Below, in pieces: positions 22,929-33,574 of a DNA stretch of 33,574 nucleotides (position 1 is the stretch's first letter; the number at the start of each line of letters is the position of its first letter). A model generated the notes under the pieces. That model was given only the letters and a program-made list of their open reading frames with translations. It made no database searches and was not told the DNA's origin. The DNA is from an uncultured Bacilli bacterium. Its GTDB lineage: Bacteria; Bacillota_I; Bacilli_A; RF39; UBA660. Location of the stretch: positions 2,855 to 36,428 of the forward strand of contig CAJTSN010000007.1 of NCBI GenBank assembly GCA_910578745.1, read 5' to 3'. The position numbers and the translations under genes were made by a program.

Positions 22929-22957
22929 AAAAAAGTAAAATAGGGGAGGATAGAGTG

Positions 22958-23671
22958 ATGTTCATTTTATATGATGATCATGATTTGTTCATGGAAAAAA
23001 GTAAAAGTATTATCGATTCCATTGGTAATATGATGGGAGGAACGAGTATAAAATGTTTCTCTAAATTTGATGAAGATTTTGAACAAGTCATTCAAGACAA
23101 AAGCTGTAAAAAGATTTATGTTTTAGATATTGAAGTTCCGGGAAGTATTTCAGGGATTGAAGTAGCCAAGAAAATAAGAAAATTCGATTGGGATAGCATC
23201 ATTATAATGGTAACTTCTCATACAGAATTAGGGTATGAAGCTTTAAAGGCTCAAATTATGCTATTAGATTTTATTTCTAAACATAGTGATTGGGAAAATA
23301 ATCTGCGTAGTGCTTTAACAAAGGCAGTATCTTTGTTAGATAATAAGAATGTAATTATTTTAGATTCGAATGGGTTAACGTATCGAATACATACAACAGA
23401 TATTGTCTATATACTCAAAGATTCTAAAGAGAGAAAATGTACGATTAGGACACTAAATGATAAAATTATGGTATCTAAAAGTATCACAGATTTAGGAAAA
23501 AGGTTAGATAGGAGGTTTTTTCAATCACATAGAAGTTGTTATGTAAATATAGAGCAAATATCTACAGTAGATTGGAGAAATAGTGTCATACATTTTAGGA
23601 CAGGAGATACAGTAGATTATCTAGCTCGTGATAAGAAGAAGGAGTTAAGGATCCTAACACCAGTATGTTAG
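22958..23671 (+). CDS. LytTR-family response regulator (AgrA-like)
   Basis: Receiver domain (YDDHD acidic pocket, VLDIEVPG phospho-Asp context, MVTSH). C-terminal LytTR domain (IVYILKDSKERKCTIRT...RFFQSHRSCYVNIEQI). GGAGG lies 8 nt upstream of ATG 22958. Confidence 0.85.
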   Translation: MFILYDDHDLFMEKSKSIIDSIGNMMGGTSIKCFSKFDEDFEQVIQDKSCKKIYVLDIEVPGSISGIEVAKKIRKFDWDSIIIMVTSHTELGYEALKAQIMLLDFISKHSDWENNLRSALTKAVSLLDNKNVIILDSNGLTYRIHTTDIVYILKDSKERKCTIRTLNDKIMVSKSITDLGKRLDRRFFQSHRSCYVNIEQISTVDWRNSVIHFRTGDTVDYLARDKKKELRILTPVC

Positions 23672-24972
23672 AAATAAGTAGTACGTTTTTATCATTTATG
23701 ATAACTTATGTGGTAGATTGTGTTTTATTTAAGAAATTGACTGATTCGAAGAGGAAGCTAATCACAATAAAAAATATAGTATTTCTAGTAATAATGAGCA
23801 TGATTTCATGTTTCATTGATGTAAATTATGGAGACTTTCCTAAGTTGATATTTTGTAATATACAGATATGTATATTATATAAATTAGTATTTGATATGTC
23901 TATGTTAAAATCAATACTGTTTACAATAGCAATAGTAATAGTATCAAATATAGCAGAGTATATATTTGTACTGATTTTTATTATAGGTATGAAAATAGAT
24001 ACTTCATATTTCACAAGTAATATAGCTGGATACTGGATTGTTAATTTAAGTGTTACCCTTTTATATTATCTTTTGCTTATAATGAAACCAGTTAGATGGC
24101 TTGTTCAAAAGAGTCTTAATTTTTTTAGTGAAAGTTATAAGATAGAAACAGTAATATTATTATTATTGTCAATGTTTTTAATAGCGGGTCTTACTTATCC
24201 AATAATAATGACATCATCTGTTAGAGAAAAAATCACATATAGTTTAGTTTTTATAGCATTTGTATATTTTATAGGAAATTTCTTTTATCAACGTTCAAAG
24301 AATGGGGAGCTGAAAAAAGCGTATGATTATTTATTAGAATATGTAAAAGAGTATGAAAAAGCATTAGATGAAAAGAGTAAAGCACAACATGAATACAAAA
24401 ATCAATTATCTGTTATAAGAGGAATGGCAAATAAGAATAATAAAAAGTTACACAAATATATAGATGATATGTTAGAAATAGAAGAGAATAAGGAAAGTCG
24501 AATCTTAAACAACTTAAAGCCACTACCAACAGGAGGATTAAAGGGATTAATTTATTATAAGACAGCCAGTATGATAAAGAAGAGTATGGAAGTACATGTG
24601 AATGTAGATAGTACATTAGAAAATGAGGAGTATTGGAATTTATGCGAGAAGAATCTACATAGTATTAGTACAATAGTGGGAGTTTATTTAGATAATGCAA
24701 TAGAAGCCGCAGAAAATGCAGAGAAGAAGTTTGTAATTATAGATATAGATGTAGAGGAAGGAAATATCATATTTAGTTTTTCAAATACATATGAAGGACA
24801 TATAGAAGTAGGGAAGATGGATAAGCAAGGGTATTCAACAAAGGGAAAAAAGAGGGGGTATGGATTATCACTTGTACAGGATATTTTAAACAAGAATACA
24901 TATTTATCGCAGGAGAGAGAAATGAATGGTATATTTTATGTACAAAAACTAATTATCCAAAATAAAAAGTAG
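23665..24972 (+). CDS. AgrC-like (HPK10) GHKL sensor histidine kinase
   Basis: Polytopic N-terminal sensor of about six TM helices, H-box AQHEYKNQLSVIRGM, N-box YLDNAIEAAENA, and G-box KGKKRGYGLSLV. 7-nt overlap with the regulator gene. Confidence 0.8.
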   Translation: MLEISSTFLSFMITYVVDCVLFKKLTDSKRKLITIKNIVFLVIMSMISCFIDVNYGDFPKLIFCNIQICILYKLVFDMSMLKSILFTIAIVIVSNIAEYIFVLIFIIGMKIDTSYFTSNIAGYWIVNLSVTLLYYLLLIMKPVRWLVQKSLNFFSESYKIETVILLLLSMFLIAGLTYPIIMTSSVREKITYSLVFIAFVYFIGNFFYQRSKNGELKKAYDYLLEYVKEYEKALDEKSKAQHEYKNQLSVIRGMANKNNKKLHKYIDDMLEIEENKESRILNNLKPLPTGGLKGLIYYKTASMIKKSMEVHVNVDSTLENEEYWNLCEKNLHSISTIVGVYLDNAIEAAENAEKKFVIIDIDVEEGNIIFSFSNTYEGHIEVGKMDKQGYSTKGKKRGYGLSLVQDILNKNTYLSQEREMNGIFYVQKLIIQNKK

Positions 24973-24989
24973 AGTTTGATCTACTTTTT
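24964..24989. terminator. Shared bidirectional terminator between the kinase gene and agrD
   Basis: AAAAAGTAGA (24964-24973), loop gtttga, TCTACTTTTT (24980-24989). The core stem is GTAGA/TCTAC, flanked by an A5 and a T5 run. The two stop codons (TAG 24970-24972 and CTA 24981-24983) pair with each other. Confidence 0.5.
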
Positions 24990-25103
24990 CTCAATTAAAC
25001 TTGCAGGCATTTCTGGTTCATCTAGCCATCCATGATTACAAGATGAATCCCCGCTTGCTCCAAATGTAGAAATCATAAGTAAAGTTTTTGCGATAAATGA
25101 CAT
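24981..25103 (-). CDS. agrD: AgrD-like cyclic (thio)lactone autoinducing-peptide precursor, 40 aa (not in the ORF track)
   Basis: My translation of the minus strand is MSFIAKTLLMISTFGASGDSSCNHGWLDEPEMPASLIEKK. SD AGGAGGG (25110-25116) lies 6 nt before the ATG. The gene starts 44 nt downstream of agrB. It has a hydrophobic leader, a single Cys and an acidic DEPEMP tail, which is the AgrD layout. Confidence 0.75.
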   Translation of the reverse strand: MSFIAKTLLMISTFGASGDSSCNHGWLDEPEMPASLIEKK

Positions 25104-25147
25104 TTTTTTCCCTCCTATTCTTTTTTACATTATAGATGGTGATTAAA

Positions 25148-25759
25148 TTATAGATTATAACGCATTACATAGTTTTTGTAATTGTTATATGGTAAGTGAA
25201 ATAAACGATATGTAAGTGGCAAAATCATAATTGATTCTACGCATACACTAAACAGTATTAAGTTAGAAATTGTACTATTTGAAATTAGGATGGAACTTAT
25301 TATAAAAACAGTACATAATATTGTAGATATAATTTTTTGTTTTTCTCGTTTCTCCTTATAGATAATTGGTGCCTTTTTTGTATCTGCTGGAGCATATACA
25401 AGAAATAAAATAATAGCAATAATGCCTAATATTATTTTTATTTGTATAGGGATTACGATGTTCTTTGCTAAAAAAGGTAGTGTTAAAAAAATCATAGAAG
25501 AAGAACATAAACAAATCCAACTTTTTGTAGCATGTAATCCACAAGCATATTTCCTTAATAAATTAAAGAAAATAAACAGAATGAGTAGTTCTTTTCCAAT
25601 TCCTAATATGAATGCGATAGGGATTATAATTAATGATTTTGTAACAGTTAAATAAAAACTCTCTAAACCGTAGCGGTATTCATCTAACTCAATGTCCGTT
25701 AGATTTGGATATTCTTTTTTTAAAATACCCAGAGTTTTTTTTAAATAGTATTGTTTCAC
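25148..25759 (-). CDS. agrB: AgrB-family membrane peptidase (AgrD processing and cyclisation)
   Basis: 203 aa, polytopic. LRKYACGLHATKSWICLCSS contains the conserved His and Cys context of AgrB (R.y.GG.HA....C). Confidence 0.85.
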   Translation of the reverse strand: MKQYYLKKTLGILKKEYPNLTDIELDEYRYGLESFYLTVTKSLIIIPIAFILGIGKELLILFIFFNLLRKYACGLHATKSWICLCSSSMIFLTLPFLAKNIVIPIQIKIILGIIAIILFLVYAPADTKKAPIIYKEKREKQKIISTILCTVFIISSILISNSTISNLILFSVCVESIMILPLTYRLFHLPYNNYKNYVMRYNL

Positions 25760-26931: not shown

Positions 26932-27003
26932 GCTTATCTATTAGGAATGTCTATGTTTTTTTCACTTTTTTTGATAAAATAGATGTGGGAAAGGTTGATG
27001 TTT

Positions 27004-29490
27004 ATGAAATTTTTGAGAAGAATTTTTGATACAGAATATAAAGAATTAGAAAAGTTTAAAAAAATTGCAGAAGATATTATGGCATTAGATGAAGAATATA
27101 CAAAATTGACGGATGAGGAACTTAAAGAAAAAACAGTTGAATTTAAAGAAAGATTAAAAAATGGAGAAACATTAAATGATATTCGTGTAGAAGCTTTTGC
27201 GACGGTTCGTGAAGCTGCTTATCGTGTGATTGGAGAAAAACCTTACTTTGTTCAAATTTTGGGAGGACTTGCAATTCATGAAGGAAATATTGCTGAAATG
27301 CGTACTGGTGAAGGTAAAACGTTGACTTCTACAATGCCAGCTTATTTGAATGCTTTAACTGGAGAAGGAGTGCATATTATTACAGTCAATGAGTATTTAG
27401 CAGAAAGAGATGCTCAGTGGATGGAAAAAATCTATCAACTCTTAGGATTAACAGTAGGTATTAATTACCGAGAACTTACACCAAGTGAGAAGAAAAAAGT
27501 TTATGACTGTGATATAACTTATACAACCAATAATGAATTGGGTTTTGATTATTTACGTGATAACATGGTTGTAAAAGCACAGGATAGAGTACAAAGACCT
27601 CTTAATTTTGCTATTATTGATGAAATCGATTCTATTTTGATTGATGAGGCAAGAACACCACTTATTATTTCTGGTGGACGAATGGATTCTGCTAATCTAT
27701 ATATGGACACAGATAAGTTCGTAAAAACTTTAAAGGAAAATAATGGTTATATTTATGATGAAAAAACCAAAGCAGTTACTTTGGATAATGAAGGAATGAA
27801 ATTAGGAGAAAAGTATTTTAAGGTTGATAATTTATATGATATTAGCAATACAAATCTCGTTCATTTCATTACACAAGCATTGAAAGCAAATTATGCAATG
27901 AAATGTGATGTGGATTATGTTGTTAAAGAAGGAAGAGTTATTATTGTAGACCCTTTTACAGGTCGTTTAATGGAGGGACGTACTTTTTCTGATGGGCTTC
28001 ATCAAGCAATTGAAGCAAAAGAAGGTGTTGAAATTCAAAGAGAGATGAAGACACTAGCGACAATTACTTTTCAAAATTTGTTTCGAATGTATAAAAAACT
28101 TTCTGGAATGACTGGTACAGCCAAAACAGAAGAAGAGGAATTCCGTGATATTTATAATATGTATGTTATTCAAATTCCTACAAATAGACCTGTTGCTAGG
28201 GTAGATTATGGTGATTTAATTTTTACGACGAAAAAAGGAAAATATAAGGCAATTGTAAATGAAATTAAAGAACGACATGCTAAGGGTCAACCCGTTTTAG
28301 TGGGAACAATTGCGGTAGAGACAAGCGAATTATTAAGCTCTATGTTAAAAAAAGAAGGAATTAAACATGAAGTATTAAATGCGAAAAATCATGCACGTGA
28401 AGCCGAAATTATTGCCCATGCTGGAGAAAAGGGGTCAGTGACCATTGCTACGAATATGGCTGGTCGTGGAACGGATATTAAAATTAGTGATGAAGTGAAA
28501 GAACTTGGAGGTTTATTTGTAATTGGAACAGAAAGACATGAGTCAAGACGTATTGATAACCAATTACGTGGTCGTTCAGGTCGTCAAGGAGATCCGGGTG
28601 CTTCTCAGTTTTGTGTATCATTTGAAGATGAACTTATGGTTCGTTTTGGTGGAGAACGTGCGAAGGCTGCACTTTCCCGTGTAGGTGCAGATGAAGATAT
28701 GTCACTTCGACTTGGCTTTGTTTCCAAATCTGTTGAGTCAGCTCAAAAAAGAATTGAAGGAAATAATTTCGACTCAAGAAAAAATTTATTACAATATGAC
28801 GATGTCATCAATAAGCAAAGGGAATATATTTATGAAAGAAGAAATGAAATTCTAGATTCTGAATCGATTCATGATATTGTCTTAGAAACTTTTAAAAATT
28901 TTATTGCTAGTTTTGTACAAGATCATATTGCTCCTGAGGATAAATTAACAGAGGAAGATTTAAAAGAAATTTTGGAATATACAAATGAGCATTTATTGAA
29001 AAATAAATTGTCTTTGGAACAATTGAGTGACAATATTGATGAATTGATTATTGATATTTATGATAGAACTGTTAAGGAATATGAAGAAAAATTAAGTGCA
29101 CTGCCAGCAGAGATAACCAATGAATTTGAAAAGGCGATTATGCTTCGAGTAATTGATACAAGATGGACGAATCATATTAGCACAATGTCTAATTTAAGAG
29201 AAGGAATTGGCTTACGTGGGTATACTGAAAATCCACTTAGAGCTTATACTGTAGAGGGATATGAGCTTTATGAACAACTATTAGATGCCATTGATAATGA
29301 AGTTACTTTATTTTTACTTAATGCTGAGATAAGACAAAATGTAGAAAGAGAGCAAGTAATTAAAGGAGAAGCCGTAAATGATGCTTCTAAACTAAAGAAA
29401 AGTGGACCAAAAAGGGTAGAAAAAATAGGTCGAAATGACCTGTGTCCATGTGGTTCGGGCAAAAAATACAAGCAATGCTGCGGAAAGTGA
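27004..29490 (+). CDS. secA: Preprotein translocase ATPase SecA
   Basis: MRTGEGKTL Walker A, IIDEIDSILIDEARTPLIISG DEAD-like motif, TNMAGRGTDI, and C-terminal Zn motif CPCGSGKKYKQCCG. ATG 27004 lies 9 nt after GGGAAAGG (alternative ATGs at 26983 and 26998). Confidence 0.95.
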   Translation: MKFLRRIFDTEYKELEKFKKIAEDIMALDEEYTKLTDEELKEKTVEFKERLKNGETLNDIRVEAFATVREAAYRVIGEKPYFVQILGGLAIHEGNIAEMRTGEGKTLTSTMPAYLNALTGEGVHIITVNEYLAERDAQWMEKIYQLLGLTVGINYRELTPSEKKKVYDCDITYTTNNELGFDYLRDNMVVKAQDRVQRPLNFAIIDEIDSILIDEARTPLIISGGRMDSANLYMDTDKFVKTLKENNGYIYDEKTKAVTLDNEGMKLGEKYFKVDNLYDISNTNLVHFITQALKANYAMKCDVDYVVKEGRVIIVDPFTGRLMEGRTFSDGLHQAIEAKEGVEIQREMKTLATITFQNLFRMYKKLSGMTGTAKTEEEEFRDIYNMYVIQIPTNRPVARVDYGDLIFTTKKGKYKAIVNEIKERHAKGQPVLVGTIAVETSELLSSMLKKEGIKHEVLNAKNHAREAEIIAHAGEKGSVTIATNMAGRGTDIKISDEVKELGGLFVIGTERHESRRIDNQLRGRSGRQGDPGASQFCVSFEDELMVRFGGERAKAALSRVGADEDMSLRLGFVSKSVESAQKRIEGNNFDSRKNLLQYDDVINKQREYIYERRNEILDSESIHDIVLETFKNFIASFVQDHIAPEDKLTEEDLKEILEYTNEHLLKNKLSLEQLSDNIDELIIDIYDRTVKEYEEKLSALPAEITNEFEKAIMLRVIDTRWTNHISTMSNLREGIGLRGYTENPLRAYTVEGYELYEQLLDAIDNEVTLFLLNAEIRQNVEREQVIKGEAVNDASKLKKSGPKRVEKIGRNDLCPCGSGKKYKQCCGK

Positions 29491-29593
29491 GTATTTATAA
29501 GGATTTGCGAGGATTTTGCAAATTTAAAAAATGTTAACAAATTCATATTTGTTTACAAATGATTTAAAAAGTATGGCTTAATGCCTTAAAAAT

Positions 29594-29630
29594 AAAGGAT
29601 GTAAACAGAAAAAATATGTGAACATCCTTT
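29594..29630. repeat. 9-bp perfect inverted repeat just upstream of the KilA-N gene
   Basis: AAAGGATGT (29594-29602), 19-nt spacer, ACATCCTTT (29622-29630). Confidence 0.4.
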
Positions 29631-29659
29631 TAAAATTCAAGAAAGTGAGGTAATATCTA

Positions 29660-30544
29660 TTGAAAAAAGATGAAGTAACAGCAGAAATAATTGTAAAAGA
29701 AAATAAAGTAGGAATTTTAAGAGTAGGAAATGTAAATTATATTTCATTAACAGATTTGGCTAAGTATCAAAATTCTAGTGATCCATCTTTTACAGTAAAA
29801 AATTGGTTAAGAAGAATTACAACCATTGACTACATTGGTTTATGGGAAGAAATTCATAATCCTAATTTTAATTTGGTCGAATTCGACCAAATTAAAACGG
29901 AGTATGGTAGAAACTCTTTTGCAATGTCTCCATCACAGTGGATTAAAAGAACTAATGCAGTAGGTATTATCTCTAAAGGTGGAAGGTATAGCATTGGAAC
30001 TTTCGCACATCCAGATATTGCATTTGAATTTGCCAGTTGGTTATCTCCAGAATTTAAGTTATATTTAATAACTGAATTTGAGAGATTAAAAACTAATGAA
30101 GCATATCAAGAAAAAGTAGATTGGCAAGCTAATAGAATACTTTCAAAGTTAAACTATGTAGTTCATACTGATGCAGTAAAGACTTATATAGTTCCAACGC
30201 TTACAGAAGCACAAAAGAAATTCGTATATGCGGAAGAGGCAGATGTTTTAAATGTTGCATTATTTGGTATGACGGCTAAAGAATGGAGAGATAATAATCC
30301 AGAGTTGGCAAAAGAGGGAAATATGAGGGATTATACTGACTTACTACATTTAGTAATATTAAATAATCTTCAAAATACAAATGCGGAATTGATTGAAGAA
30401 AAAGTACCTCAAAATGAAAGACTTGTTAGACTCAATAATTCTGCAAGAAGACAAATGAAAGTATTAAAAAACAATAAGAACATCAAAGAATTAGAATTAT
30501 TACAAAAACAAGTTAATGAAGAAAAAGAATTATTAATTGATTAA
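29660..30544 (+). CDS. KilA-N domain-containing protein
   Basis: ISLTDLAKY..., NWLRRITTIDYIGLWEEIHNPNF, GGRYSIGTFAHPDIAFEFASWLSPEFKLYLITEFERLK fits the KilA-N DNA-binding family pattern. TTG start 9 nt after GTGAGG. Confidence 0.7.
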   Translation: MKKDEVTAEIIVKENKVGILRVGNVNYISLTDLAKYQNSSDPSFTVKNWLRRITTIDYIGLWEEIHNPNFNLVEFDQIKTEYGRNSFAMSPSQWIKRTNAVGIISKGGRYSIGTFAHPDIAFEFASWLSPEFKLYLITEFERLKTNEAYQEKVDWQANRILSKLNYVVHTDAVKTYIVPTLTEAQKKFVYAEEADVLNVALFGMTAKEWRDNNPELAKEGNMRDYTDLLHLVILNNLQNTNAELIEEKVPQNERLVRLNNSARRQMKVLKNNKNIKELELLQKQVNEEKELLID

Positions 30545-30550
30545 AGTAGA

Positions 30551-30586
30551 AGAGTGTTAACAAACAATGTTAATGCTCTTTTGTTT
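30551..30586 (+). terminator. Intrinsic terminator after the KilA-N gene
   Basis: 12-bp stem AGAGTGTTAACA pairs with TGTTAATGCTCT (two G-U pairs), 5-nt loop, followed by TTTTGTTTT. Confidence 0.6.
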
Positions 30587-30612
30587 TATATAGAAAAGGA
30601 AAGGATGATTAT

Positions 30613-31892
30613 ATGAGAAGAGTAAATATAAGAAAAAGAGGAAAGGTTTATCAATATCAATTTGAAATTGGAACTATTAATGGGAAAAGGAAGTTTATTA
30701 ATAAGTCAGGCTTTAAAACTCAGAATGAAGCATATGCTGCTGGACAACTTGCTTATGAAAAATATATAAATGGAGGTGTAACTTTTAAACAATCGCAAAT
30801 GTTATATTCTGATTATTTAGATTATTGGATGAAGGAATATTTTGAAATTAATTATAAATACACAACAGCTAAGAGATATTCTGAAGCATTTGAATCTATT
30901 AAAAAGGAATTAGGTAAATATAGATTAGCATATCTAACTCCTTATGTACTAAATCAAGCATTACTTAGAATTGCTCAAAAAGTAAATTCAAAAGATGCAT
31001 TAAGAAATTATCAAAAGGTGATTAGAAGTTCATTAAGGGATGCTGCCTATTATTTTGGTTTTATTGAGAATAATCCTGCAGCTGATTTACAATTACCTAG
31101 ATTCTATTCTTTTGAGGTAAAAAAAACGATGTAAAACATATCTATACTCAAGAAGAAATTGATATGATATTGTTGAGATTCAAAAATAACTATACTTTTA
31201 CTTGTGCATTCCTGACAGCATGTTATACAGGAATGAGAACAGGAGAAGTGTTAGCTTTGACATGGGATGATATAGACTTAGAAAAACAAATAATAAAAGT
31301 TAATAAAACAGTATATGCAAAGACTAAAGATGAAAATGGTAGATGGTATTTGGGTACAACTAAAACAGAGGGTAGTTGTCGAGATGTTTATATCTGTGAT
31401 ACTTTAAAAATAGCATTGCAAAACTACAAAAAGAATCAAGAAAATAACAAAAAACTATATAGAAAAAGCTATCATAATTATTATTTAAAAGAAGTTAAAA
31501 ATAAATATGGTAAGATTGTAGAATATAAAATAATTGAACTCAAACATAAATCTAAAAATAGATCACAAATCAATTTAGTCTTTACAAAAAATGATGGGAG
31601 CTATTCTGGAACAGATTTACTCAGGTATCCATTTAAAATTATTCATAAAGAACTAAATATTAAGAATTGTAGATTTTATGATTTAAGAGGAAGCTTTGCA
31701 ACTAAGACATTAAGAGGTGGAATTGAAATTAAAGATGTTTCTAGTGTACTTGGACATAGTAGAGTAGAAACCACAGAAAATTATTATATTAGTAGCAATG
31801 AAGAAACAAAAAGAAGTGCAAGTGAGTCGTTTGAACAAATAGTACAATCTAAAGTAATTGATGAGATAATAAATTACGATACAGAAAAATAA
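30613..31892 (+). pseudogene. Tyrosine recombinase (phage/ICE-type integrase) split into two ORFs by a frame break in an A8 run
   Basis: ORF 30613..31134 carries the arm-binding N-terminus (RKRGKVYQYQFEI) and the SAM-like core-binding domain. ORF 31164..31892 carries catalytic TGMRTGEV (Arg), YDLRGSFAT, LGHSRVETTENYY (His-x-x-Arg and Tyr). The downstream frame is open from 31116 and the two frames meet in AAAAAAAA (31119-31126). Confidence 0.75.
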
Positions 31893-31979
31893 TTAATTCT
31901 TAAGTATATTATAATTTGTCAAAATATGGTAAAATAAACAATAATTAAAAATTACTAAAAAAGTGAGGAAAAGTTGATT

Positions 31980-33574
31980 ATGGAAGTGACTATTAAAAAT
32001 TGTAATAATATCAAAGAAGGAATTATTGATATAGTTCTAAATAAACTAAATATTAAATATGGAATAAATGGAACGGGAAAATCAACCATTTCTAAAGCAA
32101 TTATTAAGCAAATAAATGGAGAAACATTAGATAATCTAAAACCTTTTAATAGTGATGAAAGTATAATGCCTGGTATAACAGGATGTGAAACCTTTAAAAG
32201 TGTAAAAATTTATAATGATGATTATGTTTCTCAATACTTATTTCTACCTAATGGAGATGATTTACATAAAAATTCTTTTGAAGTATTTATTAAACCAGAT
32301 AACTATGAAAGCCAGATAGAGGATATTAATAAGATTTTAAGTATAGTAAAGGAATACGTTTCAGAGAATAACATAATTAATAATTTAATAATTCAGAGAA
32401 ATGAACTAAATAAAATATTAAAATTAAATGCAAAAAGGACTTCAATAAATTCTACAGGTCTTGGAAAGGCTCTTGCCACAGGAAATAAAATAATTAATAT
32501 TCCAGAAGAATTATCAGAGTTTTCAAAATTATTGAATTTTAAGGATAAAGTAAAATGGTACAGCTGGCAAAATAGTGGACGAGAATATATTGTAGAAAAT
32601 AAATGCCCATTTTGTGCAAAAAAACTAGATGATAAATTTAAAGCATATATGGAGACATTAGATAATTTATTTGATAAAAAAAACGTTGAGGCATTATCAA
32701 AAATGGAATCTATATTTGAAAATATCTCTAATTTGATAAGTGAAGATACAAATAAATTTATTGATGATATTTTAAAAGATGAAAATCCTATTTCAGATAA
32801 AAATAAAGAAAAGGTCGCAAAATTAATTGTTGAAATAGATGTTATATGCAATAAACTTTTATTTTTTGTACAGTTAGATTACTCAAAATTAAAAGATATT
32901 GATGATTTAGAAAAAACATTATTATCTACAAGATTTAATATTAATGAGTATAAATACATTTGTGGTGATGATTTTCTTAACATTATTGATGAATTAAATC
33001 GTAAAATAGATGAAATGCAATCTAGCATACAACTATTAAGAAAAAATATTAATATTTTAAATTCTAGTATGAAGACGTATGCAAATAGAAATAGGCAGAG
33101 AATTAATGACTTTCTTGATACTGTGGGAATGAATTATGAGGTAAAAGTAGAAAATGAAAAATTACTTTTATTATATAAAGGAACTGAAATTATAGTGGAT
33201 GTTAATACTCATTTAAGTTGGGGAGAAAAAAATGCATTTGCATTATCTTTGTTTCTCTTTGATTGCAAACATGAAAATCCTGATTTAATAATATTAGATG
33301 ATCCTGTTTCTTCATTTGATTTTAATAAGAAATATGCAATTACTCACTATCTATTTAATCAAAAAGATAGTTTACAGGGAAAAACAATATTAATGTTAAC
33401 TCATGATTTAGAACCAATAATCAATATGGTTAAAATAAAAAAATTTGGTTTTGTATCTAGTTTTTATTTAGAAAACACAAATGGAGTTATTACAGAAAAT
33501 ATAATATTAGAAAATGATATTAATTCTATTTTAAATGTTACTAAAACAAATTATGAAAATACAAATATTAACAT
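31980..33574 (+). CDS. ABC-type P-loop ATPase of the AAA_13 (PrrC/RloC-like) family, 3'-truncated by the window edge (at least 531 codons)
   Basis: My translation starts at ATG 31980 (SD GTGAGGAA). Walker A GINGTGKST (32061-32087), CPFC (32604-32615), ABC signature-like LSWGEKNAFALSLFLF (from 33213), Walker B LIILDDPVSSFD (from 33285), and LTHD switch. There is no stop codon before the window end. Confidence 0.7.
   Translation, partial: MEVTIKNCNNIKEGIIDIVLNKLNIKYGINGTGKSTISKAIIKQINGETLDNLKPFNSDESIMPGITGCETFKSVKIYNDDYVSQYLFLPNGDDLHKNSFEVFIKPDNYESQIEDINKILSIVKEYVSENNIINNLIIQRNELNKILKLNAKRTSINSTGLGKALATGNKIINIPEELSEFSKLLNFKDKVKWYSWQNSGREYIVENKCPFCAKKLDDKFKAYMETLDNLFDKKNVEALSKMESIFENISNLISEDTNKFIDDILKDENPISDKNKEKVAKLIVEIDVICNKLLFFVQLDYSKLKDIDDLEKTLLSTRFNINEYKYICGDDFLNIIDELNRKIDEMQSSIQLLRKNINILNSSMKTYANRNRQRINDFLDTVGMNYEVKVENEKLLLLYKGTEIIVDVNTHLSWGEKNAFALSLFLFDCKHENPDLIILDDPVSSFDFNKKYAITHYLFNQKDSLQGKTILMLTHDLEPIINMVKIKKFGFVSSFYLENTNGVITENIILENDINSILNVTKTNYENTNIN

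Follow-up and report, generated by a model that had tools for sequence, protein, structure and literature searches.

A predicted RloC-like ABC ATPase with a two-cysteine hook is carried as cargo of a mobile island at the 3' end of secA in an uncultured Bacilli genome

The stretch of DNA analyzed here (hereinafter the window; 33,574 nucleotides, positions 2,855 to 36,428 of contig CAJTSN010000007.1, assembly GCA_910578745.1, from an uncultured Bacilli bacterium) ends within an open reading frame (ORF) that starts at ATG 31980 on the forward strand and encodes an ABC ATPase. We refer to the protein of ORF 31980-33574 (+) as the window ATPase and count its residues from this ATG. As had been predicted from the sequence, the frame remains open for 531 codons, without a single stop, and leaves the window at its edge. 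At the GC content of the ORF (22.9%), the composition-based stop probability is 0.105 per codon and the expected open run is ~9.5 codons, which puts the probability of a 531-codon open run arising by chance at ~2e-26, and between 14 and 99 stops interrupt each of the other five frames of 31980-33574. The ORF at the window end is confirmed as a real gene. Its absence from the ORF track, pointed out in the original prediction, is explained by the way the list was made, because the lister omits ORFs that run off a sequence end. The gene and the features encoded in or directly before it are as follows.

31980-33574, + strand: 5' 76% of the predicted RloC-like ABC ATPase gene (531 of ~695 codons; AAA_13 / PDC-S06, PDLC04889), cut by the window end
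31916-31945, + strand: promoter-like TTGTCA-18-AATAAT in the 87-nt gap 3' of the integrase gene, a consensus match only
31965-31969, + strand: GAGGA, a Shine-Dalgarno (ribosome-binding) site read from the sequence, 10 nt before ATG 31980
32061-32087, + strand: Walker A, GINGTGKST, residues 28-36; N30, G31, G33 and K34 are invariant in 102 homologues
32304-33122, + strand: helical insertion of ~270 residues (~109-381) between the ABC lobes, from the AlphaFold2 secondary structure of the closest homologue
32556-32615, + strand: hook, W193-x2-W196-x3-G200-x8-C209-P-F-C212, with CPFC at 32604-32615
33213-33230, + strand: ABC signature, LSWGEK, residues 412-417; L412, S413, G415 and E416 are invariant
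33285-33320, + strand: Walker B and D-loop, LIILDDPVSSFD, residues 436-447, with LIILDD at residues 436-441
33396-33407, + strand: H-loop, LTHD, residues 473-476; H475 is invariant
33513-33574, + strand: first 20 residues (512-531) of a family-specific C-terminal domain (C-domain), the rest of which, with R540-R541-x-x-E544, K624, R629 and H653-I-E-N, lies past the window

Promoter-like sites in the vicinity of the gene (23, vs 17.7 ± 4.3 in shuffled sequences) are in no excess over chance.

The window ATPase is an AAA_13-type ABC ATPase, as had been proposed, with Pfam AAA_13 (PF13166) scoring 84.3 bits against the window fragment vs a gathering cut-off of 36. The closest homologue, P0001, is 695 amino acids long and 96% identical (20 differences over 531 residues), and was used as a full-length stand-in for the window ATPase; it scores 78.1 bits with the same Pfam model. 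Model PDLC04889 of the PADLOC family PDC-S06 matched the window part with an E-value of 2.3e-147 over profile positions 1-537 of 693, and because the match ends there, ~160 residues appear to be missing; judging from the homologous sequence, about 164 residues of the window ATPase would lie past the window end. P0001 itself is matched by PDLC04889 from end to end (protein 1-685, model 1-690/693, E 3.7e-193). A protein search recovered 2275 relatives of the window ATPase, nearly all of 680-720 amino acids. The annotation given to the subfamily goes no further than 'AAA family ATPase' or 'hypothetical'. PADLOC lists the match under a candidate label, in agreement with the suggestion that the gene is candidate defence cargo. 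The family is already catalogued, given that a PADLOC hidden Markov model (HMM) exists for exactly this subfamily; the idea that the system may be novel is therefore too strong for the family as a whole, of which no experimental study was found.

Besides PDC-S06, PADLOC yielded only weak matches of the window ATPase to mad3, mad8 and LmuB (8e-5 for LmuB). An ABC-three-component system, which the original prediction had mentioned as a possibility, was not supported, and this system, PARIS, Gabija and other multi-gene ABC systems were rejected, with no PADLOC match to ABC-three-component systems and no partner genes. The best NCBIfam scores were ~25-27 bits, vs cut-offs of 190-810, and the likeness to transporter ATPases was only a local one, around the signature and Walker B. 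Literature searches for AAA_13 / PF13166 returned nothing relevant, and those for the family accessions a passing mention only.

Conservation was scored over an alignment of 102 full-length homologues, reaching down to 31-34% identity. All five predicted motifs (GINGTGKST, CPFC, LSWGEK, LIILDD and LTHD) are in place, and the distance from Walker A to the signature, given as ~370 residues in the original prediction, was measured as ~376. In Walker B and the D-loop, D440, P442, S444, S445 and D447 are invariant. The hook is equally constrained: W193, W196, C209, P210 and C212 do not vary, G200 occurs in 100 of the 102 sequences, and the third position is occupied by F or Y (C209-P-[FY]-C212). 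No other invariant Cys or His was found near the hook in this alignment. Because the hook is adjoined by no further such residue, a four-ligand zinc site would need two protomers, by analogy with Rad50, where the two-cysteine CxxC hook holds zinc between two protomers.

The AlphaFold2 model of P0001, built from the 102-sequence alignment, has a mean predicted local distance difference test score (pLDDT) of 89.5 and a predicted template modelling score (pTM) of 0.74. In the model, helices 109-146 and 330-381 probably make up a stalk, the stretch that separates them forms an apical helical region, and CPFC is located in a small hairpin amid the shorter helices of the apex. The insertion had been described as rich in heptad-like sequence, with CPFC close to its midpoint. 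It is indeed helical and does contain CPFC; however, many short helices surround the motif rather than two long uninterrupted arms, and the motif is not at the exact midpoint, which for ~109-381 would be at ~245. Foldseek comparison of the full model with the Protein Data Bank (PDB) retrieved the heads of SMC, condensin, cohesin, Rad50, RecF, RecN and Lamassu LmuB, with E-values of 1e-7 to 4e-5.

RloC is a wobble-nucleotide-excising tRNase that responds to zinc and has a DNA-dependent ATPase (PMC2610378, PMC3458546); its hook is zinc-responsive, and DNA breaks activate it (PMC2610378, PMC3458546, PMC3874168). The family has been defined by its ABC motifs, a coiled-coil insert that carries a CXXC, and the triad Arg-X3-Glu-X36-52-His, often with Ser before the His, and Table S1 of the defining study lists 72 orthologues of 643-897 amino acids (PMC2610378). 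One of these, Escherichia coli APEC O1 YP_852004 (no. 51 in Table S1 of PMC2610378), was located as WP_000423308.1, a protein of 738 amino acids. An aligned set of 30 sequences, WP_000423308.1 and its relatives, some of them named 'wobble nucleotide-excising tRNase' at the source, constitutes what we call the RloC-like family. The APEC O1 gene (NC_008563.1 925932-928148; 25932-28148, - strand, of the extracted locus L089) resides in a P2-like prophage hotspot, between the replication endonuclease and portal genes.

When the 102-sequence family of the window ATPase was compared with the 30-sequence RloC-like family using hhalign, the two profiles matched with a probability of 99.7% (E 5.8e-26, 457 columns). 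The match spans from residue 1 to the H-loop (~480 residues), with the hooks aligned: W196-x3-G200-x8-CP[FY]C falls onto the RloC-like D-W-V-x2-G-x9-CPFCQ, and the same hook spacing is found in the Geobacillus kaustophilus RloC as printed in the supplement of PMC2610378. Furthermore, the D-D-P-x-S-S form of Walker B and the D-loop is common to the window ATPase family and the RloC-like proteins; PrrC carries D215-D216 (PMC3025547). A search of a 5.8-billion-protein set with a fragment of the G. kaustophilus RloC, a query rebuilt from a corrupted machine-read figure, gave one weak match. Because the profile match, the hook spacing and the D-D-P-x-S-S form are all common to both, the window-encoded part is, on sequence grounds, homologous to the RloC sensor module. 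Of the RloC-type architecture claimed in the original prediction, the ABC motifs, the CxxC-bearing helical insertion and the profile relationship are thus recovered, whereas the spacing of the RloC triad fails, as detailed below. The distinction that had been drawn from PrrC, which is devoid of the insertion, stands: the window ATPase carries the helical insertion and fails the PrrC HMM. The window ATPase is therefore RloC-like, but not a demonstrable RloC.

The APEC O1 protein also falls under PDC-S06, through a different model (PDLC04886, 1e-254). Since an RloC ortholog is typed in this way, PDC-S06 is in practice the PADLOC bin for RloC-like AAA_13 proteins, and it apparently pools RloC-like subfamilies that differ in their C-domains. 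The PADLOC v2 output for WP_000423308.1 contains no RloC-named model.

The original prediction had placed an effector domain and any partner genes beyond the window. The domain is there, within the ~164 further residues seen in P0001, but no conserved partner gene is. The C-domain comprises ~185 amino acids, mostly outside the window (as judged from P0001). Among the 102 homologues, S557, F596, K624, R629, H653 and N656 are invariant, and R540, R541, E544, E655, Q661 and C678 are conserved in at least 90%. A separate AlphaFold model of the C-domain (pLDDT 87) is all-alpha with one hairpin.

Several observations connect this domain with the RloC and PrrC nuclease domains. The HMM of the RloC-like family, when aligned with P0001, runs past the H-loop, with imRnIlE on HLRRYLE at posterior probabilities of 7-9, and the reciprocal HMM search aligns the same residues in two RloC-like proteins (P0371 and P0328). 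The Arg-x3-Glu element of the triad is accordingly represented by R540-x3-E544, aligned to the RloC-like R646-x3-E650. In hhalign comparisons of the C-domains, the top-scoring local segment is in every case KFINEtfHIEN vs RYINRgSHSd, and K-F-I-N-x3-H mirrors the PrrC pattern R349-x2-N352-x3-H356 (PMC3025547). Moreover, PHROG 2801, the family of the APEC O1 protein, matches P0001 with an E-value of 8e-37 over a stretch reaching residue 668.

The following results weigh against this connection and against a defensive RloC-type function. The family-level hhalign match ends at the H-loop and does not cover the C-domain. When the C-domains alone are compared, the match is not significant (probability 0.6%, E ~0.1 up to 0.17), and excision of the presumed insertion, an exploratory step not taken as support, gave at best 3% and an E-value of 0.015. 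Foldseek assigned neither a HEPN nor any other fold to the C-domain, with best E-values of 0.74 in PDB and 0.92 in BFVD. The C-domain profile finds only 558 representatives in 1.84 billion proteins, the best 150 of which are all ~700-amino-acid members of the family or fragments thereof, and its comparison with PDB sequences produced only spurious matches to the GCN4 coiled coil. The PADLOC PrrC model has no match to P0001 at E<=10, whereas it matches the APEC O1 protein at 1e-12 across the nuclease domain; conversely, the C-domain HMM of the window ATPase family does not score the APEC O1 protein. The sole invariant His, H653, lies 108 residues past E544, with F or Y in place of Ser directly before it, vs a Glu-to-His spacing of 36-52 in RloC (PMC2610378) and of 31, by residue numbers, in PrrC. 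At the position equivalent to R349 of PrrC, 80 of the 102 homologues have K, 18 have E and 4 have Q, with E in the clade of the window ATPase, and the PrrC mutant R349K is inactive (PMC3025547). In the IMG database, PDLC04889-type relatives are named transporter ATPases, not RloC. Searches for a published phenotype of PDC-S06 or its members found none, the literature mentions being prediction lists. Finally, all statements on the C-domain rest on a 96%-identical homologue, the window holding only the first 20 residues of this domain, and zinc binding, dimerization and the activating cue of the window ATPase are inferred by analogy.

Weighing both sides, we consider that the C-domain probably descends, in remodelled form, from the RloC/PrrC nuclease; it would have gained an insertion of ~65-70 residues and has lost the HEPN arginine. 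More tentatively, and at clearly less than even confidence, the subfamily might keep the RloC zinc-hook sensor and combine it with a nuclease domain that has been rebuilt or replaced, with a fold outside those in PDB and BFVD and a new catalytic constellation, for which we propose R540, E544, K624, R629, H653, E655 and N656. For the protein as a whole, we lean, with confidence slightly above even, toward a divergent member of the RloC branch of PrrC/RloC ABC ATPases, of the stand-alone, sensor-plus-effector type found in abortive-infection defence, carried as island cargo at the 3' end of secA and equipped with a remodelled effector.

By analogy with RloC (PMC2610378, PMC3458546, PMC3874168), such a protein might work as follows. 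Two protomers would share zinc through their two-cysteine hooks, yielding a hook-linked dimer; in RloC, mutation of the hook led to hyperactivity. A cue linked to DNA, for example DNA ends, DNA damage or a loss of restriction, would be answered by ATP binding and hydrolysis in the heads, and the response of the heads would switch on the C-terminal domain. This domain, which keeps R-R-x-x-E on its first helix and the invariant His in K-F-I-N-x3-H, would then most likely cut RNA (tRNA), such that translation would stop and the infected cell would be sacrificed or arrested.

The distribution of the family is broad. Relatives were identified in at least 496 species-level genomes, representing most bacterial phyla and two archaeal lineages, and in 883 plasmid records, each with a full-length relative of ~30-34% identity (Escherichia 546, Salmonella 141). 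The plasmid relatives are mostly on conjugative plasmids of E. coli, Salmonella and Klebsiella, 611 of the records being conjugative. None of the 50,697 phage records contained a relative. Clustering of the neighbors at 81 loci recovered the type III modification gene mod at 7 loci, which is the maximum, resolvase at 4, and Res, DUF2130 and ArdA at 3 each, and the 140 immediate neighbors of 80 loci were distributed over 158 Pfam families, none of which was present at more than 3 loci. The window ATPase is a stand-alone gene without a conserved partner. At the 96%-identical locus in a second genome (L001), the genes downstream encode a phosphoribosyltransferase and PrfB; there is no type Ic hsd locus and no permease neighbor.

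Two plasmid copies illustrate the settings. The copy on a Citrobacter IncFIB plasmid (pCAV1741-101, L087), in which the C-domain is the same (4e-64), neighbors a type II restriction-modification (R-M) system and an integrase. That on an E. coli IncF plasmid (pM105_mF, L099, NZ_AP018137.1 41774-57864) is located amid a type I R-M system, an S-4TM pore-forming effector, VapBC and DUF3800. The enterobacterial plasmid copies WP_000350635.1 and WP_022652236.1 are 712 amino acids long, and CcdA is also found among the cluster genes. This distribution fits defence or addiction cargo of mobile elements, as an association rather than proof.

The evidence can also be read in other ways. The same RloC-type sensor chassis might carry, in its C-terminal 185 residues, a replaced or unrelated effector, for example one that cleaves DNA, acts on nucleotides or targets membranes or proteins, which we regard as rather unlikely. 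This would fit the narrow range of the C-domain profile (558 representatives in 1.84 billion proteins, with the top 150 all in its own ~700-amino-acid family), the lack of a fold match in PDB or BFVD and of a PDB sequence match, the non-significant hhalign comparison with RloC-like C-domains, the absence of the HEPN arginine and a different set of conserved residues (S557, K624, R629, E655, N656, Q661 and C678). However, the HMM alignments pass the H-loop in both directions and place R-R-x-x-E on the RloC-like R-N-x-x-E, the [KR][FY]IN-x3-H pattern is identical to the His motif of RloC-like proteins and PrrC (PMC3025547), and both domains are alpha-helical and occupy the same place after a clearly homologous ATPase.

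It is improbable, in our estimate, that the protein serves the mobile element itself, as a Rad50/RecN-like DNA-tethering or maintenance ATPase involved in stability, recombination or post-transfer establishment, with the C-domain as an interaction module. The preponderance of conjugative plasmids (611/883) and the lack of relatives in phage records (0/50,697) speak for this role, as do the resemblance of the head to Rad50, SMC, RecN and RecF and the presence of integrases, resolvases, ArdA and partition genes among the neighbors; in addition, the Pfam description of AAA_13 mentions conjugative-transfer proteins. Yet no conserved tra, par or nuclease partner is present in the 80 loci, chromosomes also carry the family as single cargo genes, the C-domain has strongly conserved charged residues that resemble an active site, and sister RloC-like proteins are found in the P2 prophage defence hotspot. 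PADLOC, moreover, defines PDC-S06 as a candidate defence family, a definition based on defence-island association. A housekeeping ABC protein, either a transporter ATPase or a chromosomal SMC-type repair protein, has a negligible probability and is effectively refuted by architecture and context. Although the signature and Walker B are locally similar to those of transporter nucleotide-binding domains (E 1e-4 to 1e-6) and JGI names some relatives as EcfA2 or Mn/Zn transporter ATPases, the NCBIfam scores of ~25-27 bits stay far below the cut-offs of 190-810, nucleotide-binding domains of transporters have neither the ~270-residue insertion nor the extra C-domain, permease genes are lacking among the neighbors, and the gene is patchily distributed and horizontally transferred, with 23% GC vs a 30% background. 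A divergent RloC-branch ATPase with a remodelled effector is the reading that we carry forward.

The mobile context of the gene is evident from its surroundings. The GC content, ~0.30 across the window, declines in the last 2.5 kb, first to 0.26 and then to 0.23, and the gene directly follows the catalytic part of an integrase (31164-31892), so that its position behind an integrase on an AT-rich island is as had been predicted. The other features of the island within the window are the following.

29420-29490, + strand: left island junction, inside the last ~70 nt of secA, where identity to the second genome rises from ~74% to 95.5%
29660-30544, + strand: KilA-N gene, the first gene of the island (Pfam KilA-N 1.9e-17; PADLOC single-gene candidate PDC-S22 4.7e-117; PHROG 'transcriptional regulator' 8e-49)
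30613-31892, + strand: tyrosine integrase in two frames, with the Arm/SAM part at 30613-31134, the catalytic part at 31164-31892 (Phage_integrase 2.8e-19) and the break at the A8 run 31119-31126

The window from 29420 to 33574 is 95.5% identical to positions 7453-11595 of L001, whereas the adjoining secA (26983-29490) is 73.7% identical. Because of this difference, the island is concluded to have moved between species, with the same site occupied in both. The gene order in L001 is hpf, secA, KilA-N, split integrase, ATPase gene, a gene for a 204-amino-acid phosphoribosyltransferase, prfB, tilS and ftsH. Relatives of 65-90% identity are also encoded directly 3' of secA, but with different companions: KilA-N, an integrase, a helix-turn-helix protein and an 870-amino-acid protein in one set, a 256-amino-acid protein and an integrase in another, and NUDIX and HD proteins without an integrase in a third. 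Because related genomes carry different cargo there, the secA-prfB gap is a variable integration hotspot, the cargo of which differs among related gut Bacilli. A search of L001 for att-type direct repeats flanking the island revealed no convincing repeat linking the 3' end of secA to the region past the ATPase gene.

Two companions were considered as partners of the ATPase and rejected: the KilA-N gene (PDC-S22), which accompanies the ATPase gene in the closest islands alone and is absent from two more distant loci (L093 and L096), and the phosphoribosyltransferase gene (L001 12615-13229), which is absent from the other secA-linked loci and has only weak PADLOC matches (ShosT 2e-4, retron PRTase 3e-3). 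The integrase frame is broken at a poly-A run in every lineage examined, namely, at A8 in the window, in L001 (~9160) and in the 65%-related L093 (~5140), and at A7 in a further locus, L090 (~4590); in L001, the catalytic part is additionally shortened to 95 amino acids. Conservation of the A-run across divergent islands points less to simple decay than to programmed slippage, in transcription or translation, or to phase variation. An agr-type quorum-sensing cluster (22955-25759) lies upstream of hpf and secA and consists of a LytTR response regulator (22955-23671), a GHKL histidine kinase (23665-24972) and AgrB (25148-25759, - strand); the arrangement in L096 is identical.

The RloC branch is among the least understood of the single-protein defences that stop translation, and to our knowledge RloC has never been shown to protect against phage in a native setting. 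If the window ATPase actively functions in defence or abortive infection, a system that is common, encoded by one gene and easily transferable would be added, of practical interest for plasmid biology and for phage therapy in Enterobacteriaceae, and the remodelled C-domain would illustrate the ways in which the PrrC/RloC nuclease module can evolve. Should the C-domain be a new effector, a new effector chemistry or target would be found on a stand-alone defence protein; should the family not be defensive, a large PADLOC candidate class would need to be re-labelled. The window alone adds little to these questions because the distinctive C-domain lies past its end, but the ATPase gene marks the secA-prfB integration hotspot.

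Among the known systems, PDC-S06 is matched most directly: PDLC04889 covers the protein from end to end, the gene is single and without a partner, and nothing structural differs. PDC-S06 is, however, a candidate label that groups subfamilies whose C-domains differ. With Rad50/SbcC, SMC and Lamassu LmuB the window ATPase shares the ABC head fold and an inserted helical arm, and with Rad50 also the two-cysteine CxxC hook. By contrast, its arm is only ~270 amino acids long vs many hundreds, it has an extra enzyme-like C-terminal domain, and no Mre11/SbcD, ScpA/kleisin or LmuA partner lies alongside, a Metallophos neighbor being present in only 2-3 of 140 cases.

The ABC head of PrrC, with Walker A, D-D Walker B and H-loop, belongs to the same clade, and PrrC also has the R-[NR]-x-x-E motif, and R349, N352 and H356 (PMC3025547), with which the [RK]-x2-N-x3-H pattern of the window ATPase family is comparable. 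However, PrrC is a protein of ~396 amino acids without a helical or hook insertion, whereas the window ATPase has a ~270-residue insertion, and PrrC is always encoded inside a type Ic hsd locus and silenced by hsd, whereas the window ATPase gene adjoins an integrase. From RloC, the family differs in the Glu-to-His distance (108 residues vs 36-52), the lack of Ser before the His, the replacement of the HEPN Arg by K, E or Q, and the extra ~65-70 amino acids with the invariant K624 and R629; furthermore, the C-domains are not significantly alike by hhalign, and the window ATPase family has no match to the PrrC model and is not named RloC at the source. Nevertheless, RloC and the window ATPase family are both single polypeptides of ~700-800 amino acids with a PrrC-type ABC head carrying D-D-P-x-S-S and a helical insertion carrying W-x3-G-x8/9-C-x-F-C. 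In both, the C-domain opens with an aligned h-R-[NR]-x-L-E helix and includes an invariant His in [KR][FY]IN-x3-H, and the genes are usually located outside R-M operons, occasionally beside type III R-M or anti-restriction genes (including those in Table S1 of PMC2610378).

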